From Candidatus Saccharimonadota bacterium (GTDB taxonomy: Bacteria; Patescibacteriota; Saccharimonadia; Saccharimonadales; JACQNP01): a DNA stretch of 24,000 bases. How positions within the stretch are numbered: position 1 is the first letter of the stretch; each line of letters opens with the position of its first letter. Shown here piece by piece: positions 11,021 through 20,991 of the stretch. The notes below the pieces were generated by a model, which did no database searches, was not told the DNA's origin, and saw nothing but the letters and a program-made list of their open reading frames with translations. The translations under genes and the position numbers were made by a program. Location of the stretch: assembly GCA_020428005.1 (NCBI GenBank), contig JAGQNP010000005.1, forward strand, positions 1-24,000. Direction: 5' to 3'.

Positions 11021-11815
11021 CTAGTTTGAAATTGTTGATTTCTTGTAAATTTTAACTGTATCCACGGTCACATTATTACTGTTGTAGTTAAGGGTTGATT
11101 CCTTAGAATACACGTCAATTTCATCTCCCACACTTAGATCATCAAGGCTAATTTCTTCACAATTGTTTGATAATATTTTGGCATCTTTTGCTTTGTAGGT
11201 GTATCTGTAGTCTTTGCCTGACGTGTAAGAGTATCCAACAGTTATAGTCCCAGATTCACTGTCAATTTCCTTAATAGATCTAGAAACAATGCTACTCTTA
11301 TAGTTGTCATTACATGCTTTAAACTTGTATAAATATTCGGTCTTGAGTTGATATGGTTCATAAACAATACAGCTATATCCTTCGTCATGTTTTTGGAAAC
11401 TCTTGTCACCGTCAACGAATTTAGTATTTACCGATTGGGCAGAATCTAGATTTATTCCTCCACCTCCTAATAGTGGGTCATCAGGCTGGACAGTATACTT
11501 TGGTTGATAGCCGTCACTTTTTGTCTTGAAATCGGCACATAGCATATATTTTGAATCAGATATCTTATTGTATTCAACACCCTTAGTTTCGGTGATTTTA
11601 GCGTCTAATGGCGTATCTGGTAGTTTTTTGTTCTTATTTATGTATGAGTCAATCTTTGCTTTCTGGTCACGAATAGCGGTTTCTAGTTTCGCATCATGTT
11701 TACGGTTAGCGTTGCCGAAAAGATTAAGAAACACTATCGCTATAACGACCACTGATATGCCAAGCAGAAGTGCATAATTATCGCGCATTCGGGGATCAAT
11801 ATTGATTTTAGGCAT
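11021..11815 (-). CDS. N-terminally anchored extracytoplasmic protein of unknown function, with a pilin-like proximal segment
   Basis: 264-aa ORF with one N-terminal TM (YALLLGISVVVIAIVFLNLF). The next segment, RDQKAKIDSYINKNKKLPDT...YNKISDSKYMLCADF, resembles the alpha-beta head start of type IV pilin-like proteins. No G/FTLIE prepilin cleavage motif is present. The C-terminal half is beta-rich and contains 4 Cys. Confidence 0.65.
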   Translation of the reverse strand: MPKINIDPRMRDNYALLLGISVVVIAIVFLNLFGNANRKHDAKLETAIRDQKAKIDSYINKNKKLPDTPLDAKITETKGVEYNKISDSKYMLCADFKTKSDGYQPKYTVQPDDPLLGGGGINLDSAQSVNTKFVDGDKSFQKHDEGYSCIVYEPYQLKTEYLYKFKACNDNYKSSIVSRSIKEIDSESGTITVGYSYTSGKDYRYTYKAKDAKILSNNCEEISLDDLSVGDEIDVYSKESTLNYNSNNVTVDTVKIYKKSTISN

Positions 11816-11820
11816 AAAAT

Positions 11821-12519
11821 CTAATCTCCCTTTTTACGATCATCTCGCCAAAGATATATGAATATTCCACCAGCAATAATAATCGTGACTAGCATATGAA
11901 GAAAATATTGAGCAGTGTCCTCTGATGATCCATCTGGCGTAATCAGTGAATAAACAAACCAGATTATGTAGCCAATTCCAACAATAAAGGTGACGAGCTC
12001 GGTGAATTGGACCCATTTCCTTCTAGATGGATCCTTTCTGAGTGTCGGGTCATCAATTTCAGCCTTCTTAAGCCTAATAAACATGTATGCAAATATGGGA
12101 AAACAAACCAGCAATATTGTAACGAGAAAAGCACTGAAGTTATCTGTGCCACCATATGAATAACCCGATGAGGTCTTTGCAAACATATCATATATTGCCT
12201 TGTGAGCTAAGGCTCCAACCGCGAAGGCTGAGGCTAACAAACTTATAAACATAATTGCGTACTCAAAACCACGAATACTCAAGTTTGCTACAACCGCCAC
12301 TGGTCGATCATGTTGCATAGAATCGCTATGTTTCTCAACTAGTTGATTTGATTCCTTTTTGTTTGAATTTTTAGGTGGAGGTGGCGCTATTAGATCATCC
12401 AGCGCTTCATCAATCTCTTCATTACTCCATCCTGCTCCACTCAATTTTACGCGAATCTGGTCTTCTGAAAGACCCTTTTTCTTAGCTTTTTCTAAAAATT
12501 CGTCTAAATCACCTGACAC
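11821..12519 (-). CDS. Membrane protein with an N-terminal helical KKGLS..QI...L...GWS.EEI..AL module and a 4-TM DUF5671-like domain
   Basis: 232-aa ORF with a soluble N-terminal module, a PPPP linker and four TM helices. The RRKWVQFTELVTFIVGIGYIIWFVY segment is typical of DUF5671-type proteins (from memory). Confidence 0.7.
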   Translation of the reverse strand: MSGDLDEFLEKAKKKGLSEDQIRVKLSGAGWSNEEIDEALDDLIAPPPPKNSNKKESNQLVEKHSDSMQHDRPVAVVANLSIRGFEYAIMFISLLASAFAVGALAHKAIYDMFAKTSSGYSYGGTDNFSAFLVTILLVCFPIFAYMFIRLKKAEIDDPTLRKDPSRRKWVQFTELVTFIVGIGYIIWFVYSLITPDGSSEDTAQYFLHMLVTIIIAGGIFIYLWRDDRKKGD

Positions 12520-12564: not shown

Positions 12565-13488
12565 CTATTTAGTCATTAAGCCTATGATAAGAATAGACGC
12601 AAAAGCTAATCTAGTCAGCAAGCTATAAAGTGCATATTTTTGCTCTACGACATTGTAATCTTTGAGCTTGCCTAAGCCTTTCATACTCTCAAGTTGATGC
12701 TTTCCGATGAAGCTTGCAGCTACAATAAGAACTACATAAATAGCATACACAAACCAAGCAGTTCTTAGTTCACCAAATATATATGTTGAAATTGCATACA
12801 TTGCGATTAATAACCATGGTAGCAGTCCTGTGACCATGCTTAGATAATATTTTGCAGTTGCTGGTTTTCCATCTTGCGCTGTCCTCTTTTCAGCCATCCA
12901 ACCGAGAACCATTGTTACCAACATTAATCCACCGACTAACTTAAGTGTTCCTAGATCCAAAACACCGCTCAAAATTGCAGCTGTTTCAACCATTATCATC
13001 GAAGCAATAGCCATATCTAGCCAACGCAATGGTAATACTTTGTTCTTCAATCCATCAGCGTGATAGCTCTTAAGCTTTGTTAGATAAAGAGCTGGAATGA
13101 TAATCGATGTAATAGCTAGTGCCATTACAATCCACTTGACCTGAATATCAAGCAAGCCTTGAGTTGCAGGAGCAAACTGAGTACCATTTACACTTGCCAA
13201 ATCATCCTTTGCCCAATAACCTACACTTAATTGATAGCTCGTGCTATTCATGAGCATATAGGCAGCACCGATCACAGCAATATAAGCAGCAATGCTTAAC
13301 GCATATATTTTTTGAAGCATAGTCATTTGACTATTATTTGATTGTTGTTTTGTTTGCTTTGAACTTGCCTTAGTTGATGTAGCAGAAACTTTTGTGGTTT
13401 TCGTTGATTTCCTAGATGATGTTGCTTTTGATTTTGTGGTCTTTGTCTTAGCCTTGGTTGATTTCTTGGTAGTTGCCATGCCAAACAC
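12565..13488 (-). CDS. Heliorhodopsin-family 7TM protein, apparently lacking the Schiff-base lysine, with a Lys/Ser/Thr-rich N-terminal tail
   Basis: 307-aa ORF with a 54-aa basic tail, then 7 TM and a long TM1-TM2 loop. Ordered matches to remembered heliorhodopsin 48C12 motifs: LRWLDMAIASMIM (FRWVEYSLSSSVM), GWMAEK (GWLQEK), LLPWLL (IVPWIG), FVYAI (FVYGI), KGLGK (KGKGK), EQKYALYSLLTRLAFA (ERAYIVLSLVAKSALA). The start is GTG at 13488 or ATG at 13479. Confidence 0.75.
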   Translation of the reverse strand: MFGMATTKKSTKAKTKTTKSKATSSRKSTKTTKVSATSTKASSKQTKQQSNNSQMTMLQKIYALSIAAYIAVIGAAYMLMNSTSYQLSVGYWAKDDLASVNGTQFAPATQGLLDIQVKWIVMALAITSIIIPALYLTKLKSYHADGLKNKVLPLRWLDMAIASMIMVETAAILSGVLDLGTLKLVGGLMLVTMVLGWMAEKRTAQDGKPATAKYYLSMVTGLLPWLLIAMYAISTYIFGELRTAWFVYAIYVVLIVAASFIGKHQLESMKGLGKLKDYNVVEQKYALYSLLTRLAFASILIIGLMTK

Positions 13489-13535: not shown

Positions 13536-14063
13536 CTATTTTAGCTTGTTAGCAAATTTTGATTTCAATTTTTGAAGCTTTGGGTTAATTACTAATTGAC
13601 AATACGCCTGCTCTGGATGATTCTGAAAATAATTGTGATGATATGCTTCAGCTTCATAAAATACATCAAGTTTTTTCACTTCTGTAACAATTGGCCTATC
13701 CCATAATCTTTGAGCATCGATTAGCGATTTATCGATAACTCTTTTTTGTGTGTCATCGCTCCATAAAATGACAGACCTATATTCAGAACCGACATCATTG
13801 CCTTGCCTGTCCTTGGTAGTCGGATCATGTATTACCCAAAATATTTCTAGAATGTCAGCTAAATTAATAATAGTTGGATTAAAAGTAACTTCAACAACCT
13901 CAGCGTGGCCAGTATCCTCAGAGTGTAAATTGTCATAGCTTGGGTTTTTCTTTGTGCCTCCTGCATAGCCTGGTAGGACTTTGTCTACACCTCTTACCAA
14001 TTGAAATGTGGCTTCAAGACACCAAAAGCACCCACCACCAATAACAATTGTTTCCATGCCCAT
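13536..14063 (-). CDS. msrA: Peptide methionine (S)-sulfoxide reductase MsrA
   Basis: Contains GGGCFWCLEATF, GYAGG...NPSY, TGHAEVVEVTFNP, HDPTT.DRQGNDVGSEYRS. The start is probably the ATG at 14063 or 14057 (MGMETIVIGGGCFWC). The longest ORF extends to 14120 with a non-conserved extension. Confidence 0.92.
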   Translation of the reverse strand: MGMETIVIGGGCFWCLEATFQLVRGVDKVLPGYAGGTKKNPSYDNLHSEDTGHAEVVEVTFNPTIINLADILEIFWVIHDPTTKDRQGNDVGSEYRSVILWSDDTQKRVIDKSLIDAQRLWDRPIVTEVKKLDVFYEAEAYHHNYFQNHPEQAYCQLVINPKLQKLKSKFANKLK

Positions 14064-14084
14064 ATTGTACGATATTATGTATTT

Positions 14085-14774
14085 GTGAACATTGTTGAAA
14101 TTGTAATCGTATTTTTGCAACTTAGTTTCTTTGGGATCTTTGTAGCGTTCAATCCTATGCTATTAGTTTCAGAGTTATTAATAATTTTGCGATCCAAACG
14201 ACCTTTGTTATTTTCGTTGGTTTTTATCATGGGTGCAAGCATACCTTTGATAGTAATAGCGGCCATTGGCGCAGCTATTTTTAAGGAAGATACTGTAATT
14301 CGGCCATTCGGTTCAGATATTAAACTGTCACCATTTCTAAATGTATTAATTGGGGTCATTCTGTTACTAGTTTCAGTTCGACTATTCTTTAATGGCAAGA
14401 TTTCAACAGCCCACAAAGTGTCCAAAAACTCTGCAAATAATATGTCGATTTGGGCACTATTTTGGTTTGCTTTCTTTCGTTCTGCCTTAAGTTTTACCAG
14501 TATTATTGGAATTGTTGCGGCAGCAAAAGTCATCAAAGATTACACAGACAATTATTTTGTATCACTTCTCGGATTATTTTGGACAATATTAATTGGTATG
14601 CTACCTTTTTGGGGACTACTTGGTTATTCAATCAAGAGGCCAGAGAGTATCAAAGTAATTGAGAATAAAATAGACCCTATTCTAAATATCAACTACAAGA
14701 ATAGTATTCGGTGGGTATTGTTAATTGCAGGGGTATTTTTTATCTTTCGAGGATTGATAAATATATCAAACTAG
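14085..14774 (+). CDS. Polytopic membrane protein, GAP/Sap-like family (function unknown)
   Basis: This is the only plus-strand gene. It has six hydrophobic helices. The pattern FNPMLLVSELLIILRSKRP...GVILLLVSVRLFF...ALFWFAFFRSALSFTSIIGIVAAAKVI...IRWVLLIAGVFFIFRGL resembles GAP family proteins (from memory). The start is uncertain: GTG 14085 keeps TM1 intact, and ATG 14157 is the alternative. The ATG at 14001 would be antisense to the conserved msrA core. Confidence 0.6.
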   Translation: MNIVEIVIVFLQLSFFGIFVAFNPMLLVSELLIILRSKRPLLFSLVFIMGASIPLIVIAAIGAAIFKEDTVIRPFGSDIKLSPFLNVLIGVILLLVSVRLFFNGKISTAHKVSKNSANNMSIWALFWFAFFRSALSFTSIIGIVAAAKVIKDYTDNYFVSLLGLFWTILIGMLPFWGLLGYSIKRPESIKVIENKIDPILNINYKNSIRWVLLIAGVFFIFRGLINISN

Positions 14775-19032: not shown

Positions 19033-20991
19033 CTATTTATAGAGCTGGAAGTTTTTAGTTAATCGATTAACATTGTCGTTATCACCAAAGATTGCTAAGC
19101 CGTAAAAAGTAGTATCCTTTTCTGTTTGTCTACGGAGTATGTCAACAATTTCTTGATCATTGGTTGTATCTTGCATTTCTTTTATAAACACGTGGTGTCT
19201 CAAGCGTGATTCTCTAACTTTGACAAGTACTTTGTGAAGCTCTTTTTCTTCTGCTCTCTTTATAATAATTGGGTACTGGCTATTTCTAGGTAACTTTTGA
19301 CCGTCATGGGTTAGGAAATAATCACCAGTATCAAACTGATCTTTGCTAAGCTGATTACCCATGTATGCACTCATGTGCGCGACTGAGTTTGCCATTTTCC
19401 ATGGTTCTAGCTCTTTATTTACTAATATCACAACCCTCCTACCAAAGTCCTGAGGCCGTGAATTATGAGCTTTAGTATCCATAGCAGCATAAACTTCAGG
19501 ATAAGTTGATTTCGTTACATCATCAACTTCAGATCTTAACTGAGGAAATGGTACCCCTTCTCTAGCAGTAACACCTTCAAAAAACCAAAAATATCGTTCA
19601 GAGTAACTATAGCCACAAGTAGGTGGCATGCCGTATTCCAACATCTCAACAAAATCTATATCTAACATCTGTGCTTCAGCATCGCCAGCGTCACGCATCT
19701 CCTGCTGTTCCAGGAAACGATTAAGTTGATCTATAGGATCATTAAGCTCAGAATAGCCATTACCAAGTTCTGAGCCTGCAATAACAGGGTGAAAACGCTG
19801 TGTAACACGCGGATCATCTGGATCCTGCTTAGCTAATGGTGAGATAGAAAGTGGTTCATTAATAAGCCAAAAAGGACCAGCAGATTCCTTGCGAATTATT
19901 TTCCAGACACTATCCATCGCACGATTAGTATTTATCTCACCATCAAGATTAACCTTGTGGTCTGACAATATCTTTTTTAATTGTTCTAGGTCTGGATTAA
20001 ATACATCAACACCAAATTTTTCTTTCATTATGTCTGGGTAGCGAACTACTGGCCATTTTGGTTCGAGGTCAATATCAAAACCATGAACATTTTTGAACTT
20101 AAGAGTTCCCCAAGTTTTTAAAGCCACTTCTTTCATCATTCGCTCATAGAGCTCCATTCCCTCTGTATAGTCCTGATAAGCAGAATAACTTTCGAAAGCA
20201 ATGTGTTCTGGAAGGTGTTCGTCTGAATAATTTTCATTGCGGAAGCGTGGACCAATGTCATAAACCTTCTCATAGCCTGCACCAATTAAGCGCTTAAGTG
20301 GTAATTCATGACTGATCCTGAGATAAAAGTCTTCATCTATTGCATCCATATGTGTAACAAAAGGGTTAGCATCAGCGCCCCCAGTTGTGTGTTCCAGTAC
20401 CGGAGTATTGATTTCTATAAACCCTTCATTGTTTAGAAAATCACGAGTTGCCTGCCAAAACTTACTACGTCTAATAAATCGCTGCTTGACATCATCATTA
20501 ACATTTATGTCTACGTAGCGTCTACGTAGTCTTTCTTCTTTGTTAGTAAAACCATCTTGTTTGTTTGGCATTGGACGGAGTGACTTTGTCAGTAAACGAA
20601 GCTTGGCTACTTCTACAGAAATCTCACCTGTTTGTGTTTTTATTACTTCGCCTTCACATTGAACAAAATCACCAGTATCTAGTAAGCTTATGTGTTCTAG
20701 CCCAACTTCACTGTTTTTAGTATCAACTTCATCTTCTTTTTCTTTCCAGAAAAGTTGTAGTTCGCCAGTATTATCTTTTATGACAACGAAGGCAATTTTT
20801 CCAAATTTTCGAATTGAAATAATTCGACCAACCACAGTAACTTGTTTACCCTCAAGTTGTGAAAAATTATCAATGATTTGAACATTATTATGGGTACGCC
20901 TCGAAGAAGCAGGATATGGATTAATTCCGAGTTTTTTAAGATCTTCGAGCTTGCGTAATCTCTCGTCACGCAGTTCTTTTAGATTAGCCAT
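19033..20991 (-). CDS. lysS: Lysyl-tRNA synthetase (class II) fused to a C-terminal DUF2000-like domain
   Basis: Residues 1-487 form the class IIb LysRS: an N-terminal OB anticodon-binding domain (VTVVGRIISIRKFGKIAFVVIKDNTGELQLF), motif 2 region FRNE, and HPVIAGSELGNGYSELNDP. Residues about 517-652 (19036..19443) are extra: RRVVILVNKELEPWKMANSVAHMS...DGQKLP...YPIIIKRAEEKEL...FIKEM.DTTND...FYGLAIFGDNDNVNRLTKNFQLYK. Confidence 0.93.
   Translation of the reverse strand: MANLKELRDERLRKLEDLKKLGINPYPASSRRTHNNVQIIDNFSQLEGKQVTVVGRIISIRKFGKIAFVVIKDNTGELQLFWKEKEDEVDTKNSEVGLEHISLLDTGDFVQCEGEVIKTQTGEISVEVAKLRLLTKSLRPMPNKQDGFTNKEERLRRRYVDINVNDDVKQRFIRRSKFWQATRDFLNNEGFIEINTPVLEHTTGGADANPFVTHMDAIDEDFYLRISHELPLKRLIGAGYEKVYDIGPRFRNENYSDEHLPEHIAFESYSAYQDYTEGMELYERMMKEVALKTWGTLKFKNVHGFDIDLEPKWPVVRYPDIMKEKFGVDVFNPDLEQLKKILSDHKVNLDGEINTNRAMDSVWKIIRKESAGPFWLINEPLSISPLAKQDPDDPRVTQRFHPVIAGSELGNGYSELNDPIDQLNRFLEQQEMRDAGDAEAQMLDIDFVEMLEYGMPPTCGYSYSERYFWFFEGVTAREGVPFPQLRSEVDDVTKSTYPEVYAAMDTKAHNSRPQDFGRRVVILVNKELEPWKMANSVAHMSAYMGNQLSKDQFDTGDYFLTHDGQKLPRNSQYPIIIKRAEEKELHKVLVKVRESRLRHHVFIKEMQDTTNDQEIVDILRRQTEKDTTFYGLAIFGDNDNVNRLTKNFQLYK

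Follow-up and report, generated by a model that had tools for sequence, protein, structure and literature searches.

A Saccharibacterial heliorhodopsin orthologue with arginine at the retinal Schiff-base position

Introduction

The function of heliorhodopsins has been debated since 2018; among the ideas put forward are a light-regulated interaction with glutamine synthetase or with photolyase, and a part in oxidative-stress signalling. The subject of this report is a heliorhodopsin-like gene on the minus strand of a 24,000-nucleotide stretch of DNA from a Candidatus Saccharimonadota bacterium (GenBank assembly GCA_020428005.1, contig JAGQNP010000005.1, positions 1 to 24,000), the whole of which is referred to below as the window. 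The predicted product carries arginine in place of the lysine that forms the Schiff base with retinal in the heliorhodopsins 48C12 and TaHeR.

Rhodopsins without the lysine of transmembrane helix 7 (TM7) are on record in the type-1 family, as the initial annotation of this stretch stated. They include Rh-noK (Yamauchi et al. 2019), haloarchaeal opsins (Becker et al. 2016) and the freshwater FArhodopsins, and they share with the present protein a conserved, intact rhodopsin fold that lacks the TM7 lysine and is presumably both chromophore-free and functional. They are usually paralogues found beside a working pump, whereas the gene described here is a heliorhodopsin orthologue at the locus of the lysine form, and its replacement is specifically arginine and is coupled to the counterion. 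If Rh-noK is defined broadly, as an intact and conserved gene for a microbial-rhodopsin fold without the TM7 lysine, then the present protein falls within the definition. The original definition, a type-1 protein encoded beside a functional pump paralogue, does not describe it; no second rhodopsin gene was found among the 21 window open reading frames (ORFs), out of 28 of at least 100 amino acids, that were scanned against Pfam.

Within the heliorhodopsins themselves, proteins with asparagine at the lysine position have been noted, though not characterised, in 23 betachloroviruses (PMC12390592). These are likewise heliorhodopsin homologues that naturally lack the Schiff-base lysine, but they are viral, eukaryote-associated and distant, they carry Asn rather than Arg, and neither counterion coupling nor recurrence has been reported for them. 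The initial annotation was aware of no characterised lysine-less heliorhodopsin. In addition, a 2019 census, as quoted in PMC7714340 and PMC10730872, counted about 600 proteins without the lysine among 5,558 microbial rhodopsins, a set that includes heliorhodopsins. The heliorhodopsin surveys consulted all require the TM7 lysine (PMC8612252, PMC9166423, PMC9601134), in two cases explicitly as the motif SxxxK (PMC8612252, PMC9166423), so that lysine-less members are discarded by design, and an ancestral-reconstruction data set likewise dropped sequences without it. Full-text literature searches returned no description of a bacterial lysine-less heliorhodopsin, of a Lys-to-Arg clade or of counterion coupling, the 2019 census being represented in them through quotations. 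The present case extends the lysine-less theme to the third rhodopsin family, the heliorhodopsins (type-3 rhodopsins), and opens no new theme.

A further parallel comes from animals. Nemopsins, type-2 opsins of nematodes, naturally carry Arg at K296, and a K-to-R mutant of Drosophila Rh1 loses light sensitivity and keeps its chemoreceptor function (PMC9368030). Both have Lys replaced by Arg at the Schiff-base site of a seven-transmembrane (7TM) retinal protein, and the Rh1 mutant is light-blind and functional; however, these are opsins of the G-protein-coupled receptor type, from an unrelated family with another mode of signalling, and the comparison is one of analogy only.

Results and discussion

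A heliorhodopsin-family protein with arginine at the Schiff-base position

The features on which the following analysis depends are these (residue numbers are those of the 307-residue ORF unless stated otherwise; in the deposited 304-residue protein Arg293 is R290 and Asp158 is D155):

12565..13479, minus strand: heliorhodopsin-like gene, 304 amino acids from the ATG at 13479; stop codon at 12565-12567
12571..13320, minus strand: 7TM core with a long AB beta-hairpin, from an AlphaFold2 model with a predicted local distance difference test score (pLDDT) of about 93-98 per block; helices at residues 57-79, 117-136, 153-173, 179-206, 211-239, 245-270 and 278-306, strands at 84-94 and 105-116
13021..13026, minus strand: Arg155-Trp156, the family-wide RW motif of TM3 (R104 and W105 of 48C12), invariant in both alignments of relatives inspected
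13015..13017, minus strand: codon GAT, Asp158, at the Schiff-base counterion position (that of E107 in 48C12); putative partner of Arg293 in an ion pair
12622..12624, minus strand: Ser289, the serine of SxxxK, kept here as SxxxR (S237 of 48C12); Ser in 21 of 24 clade members
12610..12612, minus strand: codon AGA, Arg293, at the retinal Schiff-base lysine position (K241 of 48C12 and K238 of TaHeR), placed by alignment

The gene product is a heliorhodopsin-family membrane protein, as the initial annotation had proposed. Its match to Pfam PF18761 (Heliorhodopsin) reaches 93.4 bits, well over the cut-off of 26.7, with E 1.8e-26; it spans residues 66-303 and 234 of 242 profile positions. A phmmer comparison with the sequences of the Protein Data Bank (PDB) retrieved heliorhodopsins only (48C12 and TaHeR, E about 1e-13), and a profile built from 63 relatives matched the 48C12 and TaHeR chains near full length at E 1e-48 to 1e-59. 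The AlphaFold2 model, computed from the alignment of the same 63 relatives, has a mean pLDDT of 89.5 (about 97 for the core, 93-98 across its parts) and a predicted template-modelling score (pTM) of 0.80. When this model was compared with the PDB by Foldseek, the top structures were those of TaHeR (6is6 and 7u55; TM-score 0.87-0.90 when normalised by target, root-mean-square deviation 2.1-2.3 Å), followed by 48C12 (TM-score 0.80-0.84), with type-1 rhodopsins far behind at about 0.5-0.7; a fold search of BFVD gave three viral matches only. The characteristic motifs occur in the order originally listed: RWLD (155-158), GWMAEK (196-201), LPW (223-225), WFVY (245-248), KGLGK (270-274) and SLLTR (289-293). 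Under heliorhodopsin topology, 28 Lys and Arg residues fall in cytoplasmic-side segments and 4 in outer ones, which agrees with a predicted inverted topology in which the N-terminus is cytoplasmic.

The codons named in the initial annotation are as given there: on the minus strand, 12612..12610 reads AGA (codon 293, with c at plus-strand position 12611) and 13017..13015 reads GAT (codon 158). The phmmer alignment pairs EQKYALYSLLTRLAFA with ERAYIVLSLVAKSALA of 48C12, which sets R293 on K241, and RWLDM with RWVEY, which sets D158 on E107. The same register was obtained from the 63-sequence profile against the PDB and from MAFFT, which was run on two sets, one of 68 sequences and one of 212. Where heliorhodopsins have SxxxK, TM7 thus reads SLLTR. 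A register shift that would bring K284, or another lysine, into the Schiff-base column was considered and rejected: it occurred in no alignment, and K284 is mostly Asn in the related arginine-bearing proteins. Nor does their membrane core hold any conserved lysine, the conserved K140, K148, K183 and K201 all lying at loops or helix ends.

At the counterion position of TM3 a carboxylate is present in the form of Asp158. The replacement of Glu107 by Asp is evident in the alignments, but it is not tied to the loss of the lysine: Asp is also the majority residue (80 of 133) in lysine-bearing close relatives. The PDB holds a crystal structure of the corresponding E108D counterion mutant of TaHeR (7CLJ).

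In summary of the comparison with 48C12 and TaHeR, the query shares the sequence family, the 7TM fold with its long AB beta-hairpin, the N-in topology, the TM3 RW motif and carboxylate, the E149 equivalent, the TM5 PW, the serine of the TM7 SxxxK motif and, with the lysine-bearing Saccharibacterial forms, the chromosomal slot. It differs in having Arg for Lys, changed Schiff-base-cavity residues, Ala/Gly for F206, a basic N-terminal tail of 50 residues and a score below the cut-off of the NCBIfam heliorhodopsin model.

The arginine forms are conserved orthologues of lysine-bearing heliorhodopsins

Relatives were collected from a search of 5.8 billion proteins (65 sequences) and from an exhaustive HMMER search of 1.84 billion cluster representatives; the latter had 572 matches with E no higher than 1e-3, and the best 150 of these were retrieved. 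In the joint alignment, 209 relatives stand beside the query and two reference heliorhodopsins, for a total of 212 sequences. Neighbour-joining placed the query in a 24-member clade (53-67% identity to the query) in which every sequence has Arg at the Schiff-base position, and the nearest relative of this clade is lysine-bearing (P0066).

In the seven clade loci for which DNA was available, the arginine is encoded by AGA (four), AGG (one) and CGT (two), and two remoter arginine-type loci use CGG and CGC; lysine-type loci have AAA or AAG. This turnover of synonymous codons implies that the arginine has been kept. All ORFs of the clade are intact and full length. Synonymous divergence (dS) is saturated, and the ratio of nonsynonymous to synonymous rates (dN/dS) is 0.01-0.16 where it could be computed. 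The neighbouring methionine sulfoxide reductase MsrA served as a clock on the same genome pairs: protein divergence of the heliorhodopsin core, divided by that of MsrA, comes to 1.0 where both genomes have Arg and to 1.09 where both have Lys, with no sign of relaxed constraint. Judged from these sequence comparisons, the arginine forms are under normal purifying selection.

These data bear directly on whether the gene is a decaying relic, a pseudogene in the making, or whether the arginine codon is an error of sequencing or assembly. AGA is a single transition away from AAA, and both the weak NCBIfam score of the query (see below) and its NCBI label as a hypothetical protein could be taken as signs of decay. 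Yet Arg is found in 49 independent sequences from different assemblies and in five codons (AGA, AGG, CGT, CGG and CGC), which led us to reject a sequencing error, and the intact ORFs across the clade, the dN/dS of at most 0.16 and the lack of acceleration relative to MsrA led us to reject a pseudogene. The high confidence of the AlphaFold2 model also argues against decay. Relic and error together are a very improbable explanation.

The weak score concerns the NCBIfam equivalog model NF038020 ('heliorhodopsin HeR'), against which the query reaches 91.2 bits, under the 100-bit cut-off, while the lysine-bearing orthologues P0033 and P0043 lie above it at 115.2 and 122.3 bits. It is because of this sub-cut-off score that the NCBI Prokaryotic Genome Annotation Pipeline (PGAP) labels the whole arginine clade 'hypothetical protein'.

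Arginine- and lysine-bearing genes also share one syntenic slot. GTDB species genomes yielded 15 loci, all of them in Saccharibacteria, Saccharimonadales or Patescibacteria metagenome-assembled genomes, and this, with the NCBI record of the query protein, bears out the suspected origin in the candidate phyla radiation (CPR). The common gene order, in which HeR is the heliorhodopsin gene, is (proS-greA-)aspS/lysS .. HeR - TRAM/tRNA-U5 methyltransferase - rsmE - PD-(D/E)XK - x - serS - hpf - secA. This slot is occupied by arginine-type genes (L001, L002 and L004), by Lys/Asp-type genes (L005 and L006) and by a canonical-looking Lys/Glu gene with the motif SLVAK (L022), and the gene order of the window follows it save for local replacements. 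Since the two types share the slot, they are orthologues at one ancestral locus, and the lysine was replaced in situ. Horizontal acquisition was rejected: GC content is uniform at 0.36-0.39, and synteny with the lysine-bearing loci is conserved.

Replacement by arginine is recurrent and coupled to an acidic counterion residue

The Schiff-base column of the 212-sequence alignment holds Lys in 143 sequences, Arg in 49 and another residue in 18. Arginine is present in all 24 members of the query clade and in about a dozen further lineages, which answers the call in the initial annotation for a survey of Lys against Arg among orthologues. Fitch parsimony on the rough neighbour-joining tree, which was built on Kimura distances so that the number of independent events is approximate, places Lys at the root and gives about 20 maximal lysine-less clades and at least 22 changes. 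About 13 of these roughly 20 lysine-less lineages carry Arg.

The identity of the counterion residue follows that of the replacement. Asp or Glu occupies the counterion position in 46 of the 49 arginine sequences as against 3 of the 18 with uncharged replacements (Fisher p 1.6e-9, uncorrected for phylogeny). Moreover, a single step leads from Lys codons to six other amino acids; two of them, Glu and Asn, were never seen, whereas 49 of the 67 replacements are Arg. Because Arg predominates in this way and Glu and Asn are absent despite being one step away, the pattern points to selection to keep a buried cation beside the carboxylate. Small clades in which an Arg/acidic member stands with members that lack both charges (P0162 with P0185, P0138 and P0168; P0087 with P0049) suggest a path from Lys to Arg and on to a neutral pair.

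We also looked for substitutions that accompany K-to-R convergently; the best candidate, Q216 to Ser, occurs in 5 of 13 lineages, position 142 is variable, and neither is robust. The 18 other residues are Leu, Gln, Val, Thr, Ala, Ile, Tyr and Ser, and in most of these sequences the counterion position is not acidic. Among the lysine-bearing relatives, 33 of 142 also lack an acidic counterion, its place being taken by residues such as Gly, Tyr, Phe, Ala, Leu or Val, which would be unusual for a protonated Schiff base.

A proposed ion pair in place of the protonated Schiff base

Taken together, the data make it rather probable that the gene encodes an orthologue of the heliorhodopsin of Saccharibacteria that is functional and light-blind, with an Arg-Asp ion pair standing in for the protonated Schiff base and its counterion. 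The protein keeps the heliorhodopsin fold, seven transmembrane helices with the AB beta-hairpin, and by prediction the inverted topology with the N-terminus inside. Arg in place of the TM7 Lys would preclude attachment of retinal through a Schiff base. A guanidinium group forms no stable retinylidene Schiff base, and for this reason the protein should not be a conventional retinal pigment; from the same chemistry we infer that it has no chromophore at all. The guanidinium of Arg293 would instead be a buried cation in the place of the protonated Schiff base, pairing with Asp158 of TM3 beside Ser289. That Arg293 is fixed and coupled to an acidic counterion residue, and that Ser289 is kept, argues for this arrangement, although the contact between Arg293 and Asp158 is itself putative. 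In 48C12, the Schiff base is directly hydrogen-bonded to E107 and S237 (Kovalev 2020, PMC7049168).

In such a protein the helix bundle would be electrostatically satisfied and held in one state without a chromophore. Whatever the heliorhodopsin of these bacteria does through the cytoplasmic side would then go on constitutively, free of control by light; this face includes the BC, DE and FG loops as well as the N-terminal tail, which is basic and conserved. The protein probably performs, through this face, the light-independent part of the heliorhodopsin role, and the normal purifying selection on the gene argues that it is useful without light. Saccharibacteria lack blh and must scavenge retinal from their hosts (PMC9296517); with retinal coming from hosts, a loss of dependence on the chromophore is plausible where the supply fails.

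Several points weigh against this account. The Arg293-Asp158 contact and the state of the pocket come from reasoning and not from the coordinates of the model, the Fisher test quoted above is uncorrected for phylogeny, and the tree is a rough neighbour-joining one. Pocket residues W156, P224-W225, Q265 and M166 are kept, and the change of F206 to Ala/Gly enlarges the pocket and does not fill it. Furthermore, buried residues outconserve lipid-facing ones in any case, so that conservation of the pocket fails to part a structural core from a ligand site. The genomic context consists of housekeeping genes in a broadly syntenic region, and the adjacency of msrA may be no more than inherited synteny. 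Finally, we know of no partner for the protein.

As an alternative, the protein may have acquired an activity of the transport type that needs no chromophore, such as lipid scrambling or the leakage of protons or ions; activities of this kind have been described for opsin, bacteriorhodopsin and one proteorhodopsin. A proteorhodopsin is reported to have light-independent scramblase activity (PMC10730872), some viral heliorhodopsins are reported to conduct protons, and it is established that Saccharibacteria rely on hosts for many building blocks. Set against this, two heliorhodopsins were assayed without scramblase activity being seen (Shihoya 2019, as quoted in PMC10730872), heliorhodopsins of the 48C12 type transport no ions, the extracellular half of heliorhodopsins is hydrophobic (PMC7049168) and no pore-like feature was found in the present sequence. 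We regard a transport activity as improbable.

The recurrent and selected replacement of Lys by Arg in orthologues at the lysine-form locus shows that the heliorhodopsin scaffold is worth keeping without a covalent chromophore. The arginine forms would be natural 'light-blind' controls for functional studies, and they offer a structural idea, namely that an Arg-carboxylate pair may mimic a protonated Schiff base with its counterion. They might also serve as a read-out of whether a Saccharibacterial lineage still reaches host-derived retinal. A wider and more tentative proposal, which we consider possible rather than likely, is that at a single ancestral Saccharibacterial heliorhodopsin locus a retinal photoreceptor has become a protein without a chromophore again and again, some 10-20 times. 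The conversion would follow a preferred path, on which Lys first gives way to Arg as a mimic of the protonated Schiff base, so that the buried ion pair is preserved, and both charges are then lost in some lineages. Were this so, heliorhodopsin would have a core function without light, maybe in scaffolding or regulating a cytoplasmic partner and possibly tied to MsrA and the repair of oxidative damage, and natural pairs of Lys and Arg orthologues would be a ready tool for finding it.

The retinal pocket

The polar residues that line the Schiff-base cavity of 48C12 are changed in the query clade: H23 to Tyr, H80 to Pro, N101 to Leu/Met, Y108 to Met and S111 to Val/Thr/Ala; N16 of 48C12 is likewise replaced by Tyr. 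Most of these changes are common to the lysine-bearing Saccharibacterial sisters. Four others set the query clade apart, namely F206 to Ala/Gly, position 142 to Met/Cys, Y92 to His and L227 to Glu; M141 is Thr in this clade. Residues R155, W156, M166, E200, P224, W225, Q265, Y278, E282 and S289 are retained. Across the arginine clade, the equivalents of the pocket and Schiff-base-cavity positions listed by Kovalev et al. have a conservation of 0.835 compared with 0.732 for other transmembrane positions (permutation p 0.014), with 16 of 27 pocket-equivalent positions at least 95% conserved; the lysine-bearing set has a like pattern.

This conservation also speaks for another reading, in which the retained pocket would hold a hydrophobic ligand without a covalent bond. 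Such a ligand might be retinal, retinoic acid or some other carboxylate able to form a pair with Arg, or else a carotenoid or a lipid of the host, and the protein would then be a chemoreceptor, a ligand-gated regulator or conceivably a weak photoreceptor, and not an empty scaffold. W156, W225 and Q265 are invariant, and the changes F206 to Ala/Gly and M141 to Thr leave room in the pocket. The animal K-to-R opsins are thought to be chemoreceptors (PMC9368030), and a fenestration and a proposed carotenoid site have been described for heliorhodopsin in a 2025 preprint (10.1101/2025.11.27.691015). However, the simplest reading of the Asp or Glu that accompanies Arg in nearly all arginine sequences is an ion pair that neutralises itself, with no charge left over for a ligand. 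No retinal is bound by those Rh-noK proteins and FArhodopsins that have been tested, any 7TM protein conserves its buried residues, and the gene context suggests no ligand. A non-covalent ligand is accordingly an unlikely, though not negligible, explanation beside that of a light-blind ion-pair protein.

The start codon and the N-terminal tail

The initial annotation had taken the gene as the maximal ORF, 12565..13488 on the minus strand. This ORF exists and encodes 307 residues from a GTG at 13488, but its start is not the one favoured here. The relatives all conserve an N-terminus of the form MATT(T)KSTKAKTKT, and the 304-residue product is 100% identical to the NCBI protein MCA9332501.1 ('hypothetical protein KDA00_01365', Candidatus Saccharibacteria bacterium); on these two grounds the real start is almost certainly the ATG at 13479. 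The first segment of the protein from this start is as follows:

13321..13479, minus strand: N-terminal tail, cytoplasmic, rich in Lys, Thr and Ser and predicted to be disordered; head motif MATTKKSTKAKTKT; pLDDT 48-65 over residues 1-55

The tail contains 14 Lys and Arg residues and no Asp or Glu. Its head motif is invariant or nearly so in the query-clade alignment, and a start of the form MA[TKS][TKS] is shared by 148 of 213 family members. The tail could bind a protein partner, nucleic acid or lipid. A disordered, acid-free tail of 50-70 residues rich in Lys, Thr and Ser is present in nearly all Saccharibacterial heliorhodopsins, of lysine and arginine type alike and including the canonical-like SLVAK forms, and is absent from 48C12 and TaHeR.

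Gene neighbourhood

Directly upstream of the heliorhodopsin-like gene lies the gene for MsrA:

13536..14063, minus strand: msrA, peptide methionine-S-sulfoxide reductase, same strand as the heliorhodopsin-like gene (Pfam PMSR 191.9 bits; TIGR00401 174 bits)

Besides the window, msrA is found within 2 kb upstream of the heliorhodopsin or heliorhodopsin-like gene in 17 of 21 distinct related Saccharibacterial loci, of both lysine and arginine type. Its orientation among the loci is the same strand or sometimes divergent, and it is absent at the canonical-like locus L022. Heliorhodopsins have been linked to photo-oxidative stress responses (PMC8612252; PMC9166423), with which the adjacency of msrA would fit, although a functional link is offered as a lead only. 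Full-text literature searches found no paper that names heliorhodopsin together with methionine sulfoxide reductase. Enrichment in methionine, considered as a sign of such a link, was rejected as too weak, Met making up 4.3% of the core in the query clade, 2.5% in the lysine-bearing sisters and 3.5% in canonical heliorhodopsins. The 47-nucleotide gap between the two genes holds no terminator-like site, a promoter and terminator scan of the msrA-heliorhodopsin region gave counts at or below shuffle expectation, and the window had no match when scanned with Rfam and for tRNAs.

In related loci, the heliorhodopsin gene is often translationally coupled to RNA methyltransferase genes downstream, and in most of them the TRAM/tRNA-U5 methyltransferase gene follows it directly. 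The window differs at 11021-12519 (minus strand), where the place is taken by a DUF5671 membrane protein with an acidic soluble N-terminal domain (11821-12519) and then a 264-residue protein without a Pfam match (11021-11815). On the other side, an ORF for an SfLAP-family membrane protein (14001-14774, plus strand), which is not there in L001 and L002, lies between an ornithine/diaminopimelate decarboxylase gene and msrA. In its maximal form this ORF overlaps the maximal, TTG-started msrA ORF (13536-14120, minus strand), and both probably start further in, msrA at the ATG at 14063.

Further away, a class II tRNA synthetase of aspartyl/asparaginyl type (19033-20991, minus strand, 652 amino acids) carries a C-terminal DUF2000, a fusion that is also present in L001, L005 and L022. 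Two neighbouring proteins encoded at 420-1211 and 1590-2762, both on the minus strand, contain DUF4352 domains, that of 420-1211 scoring just under the Pfam cut-off.

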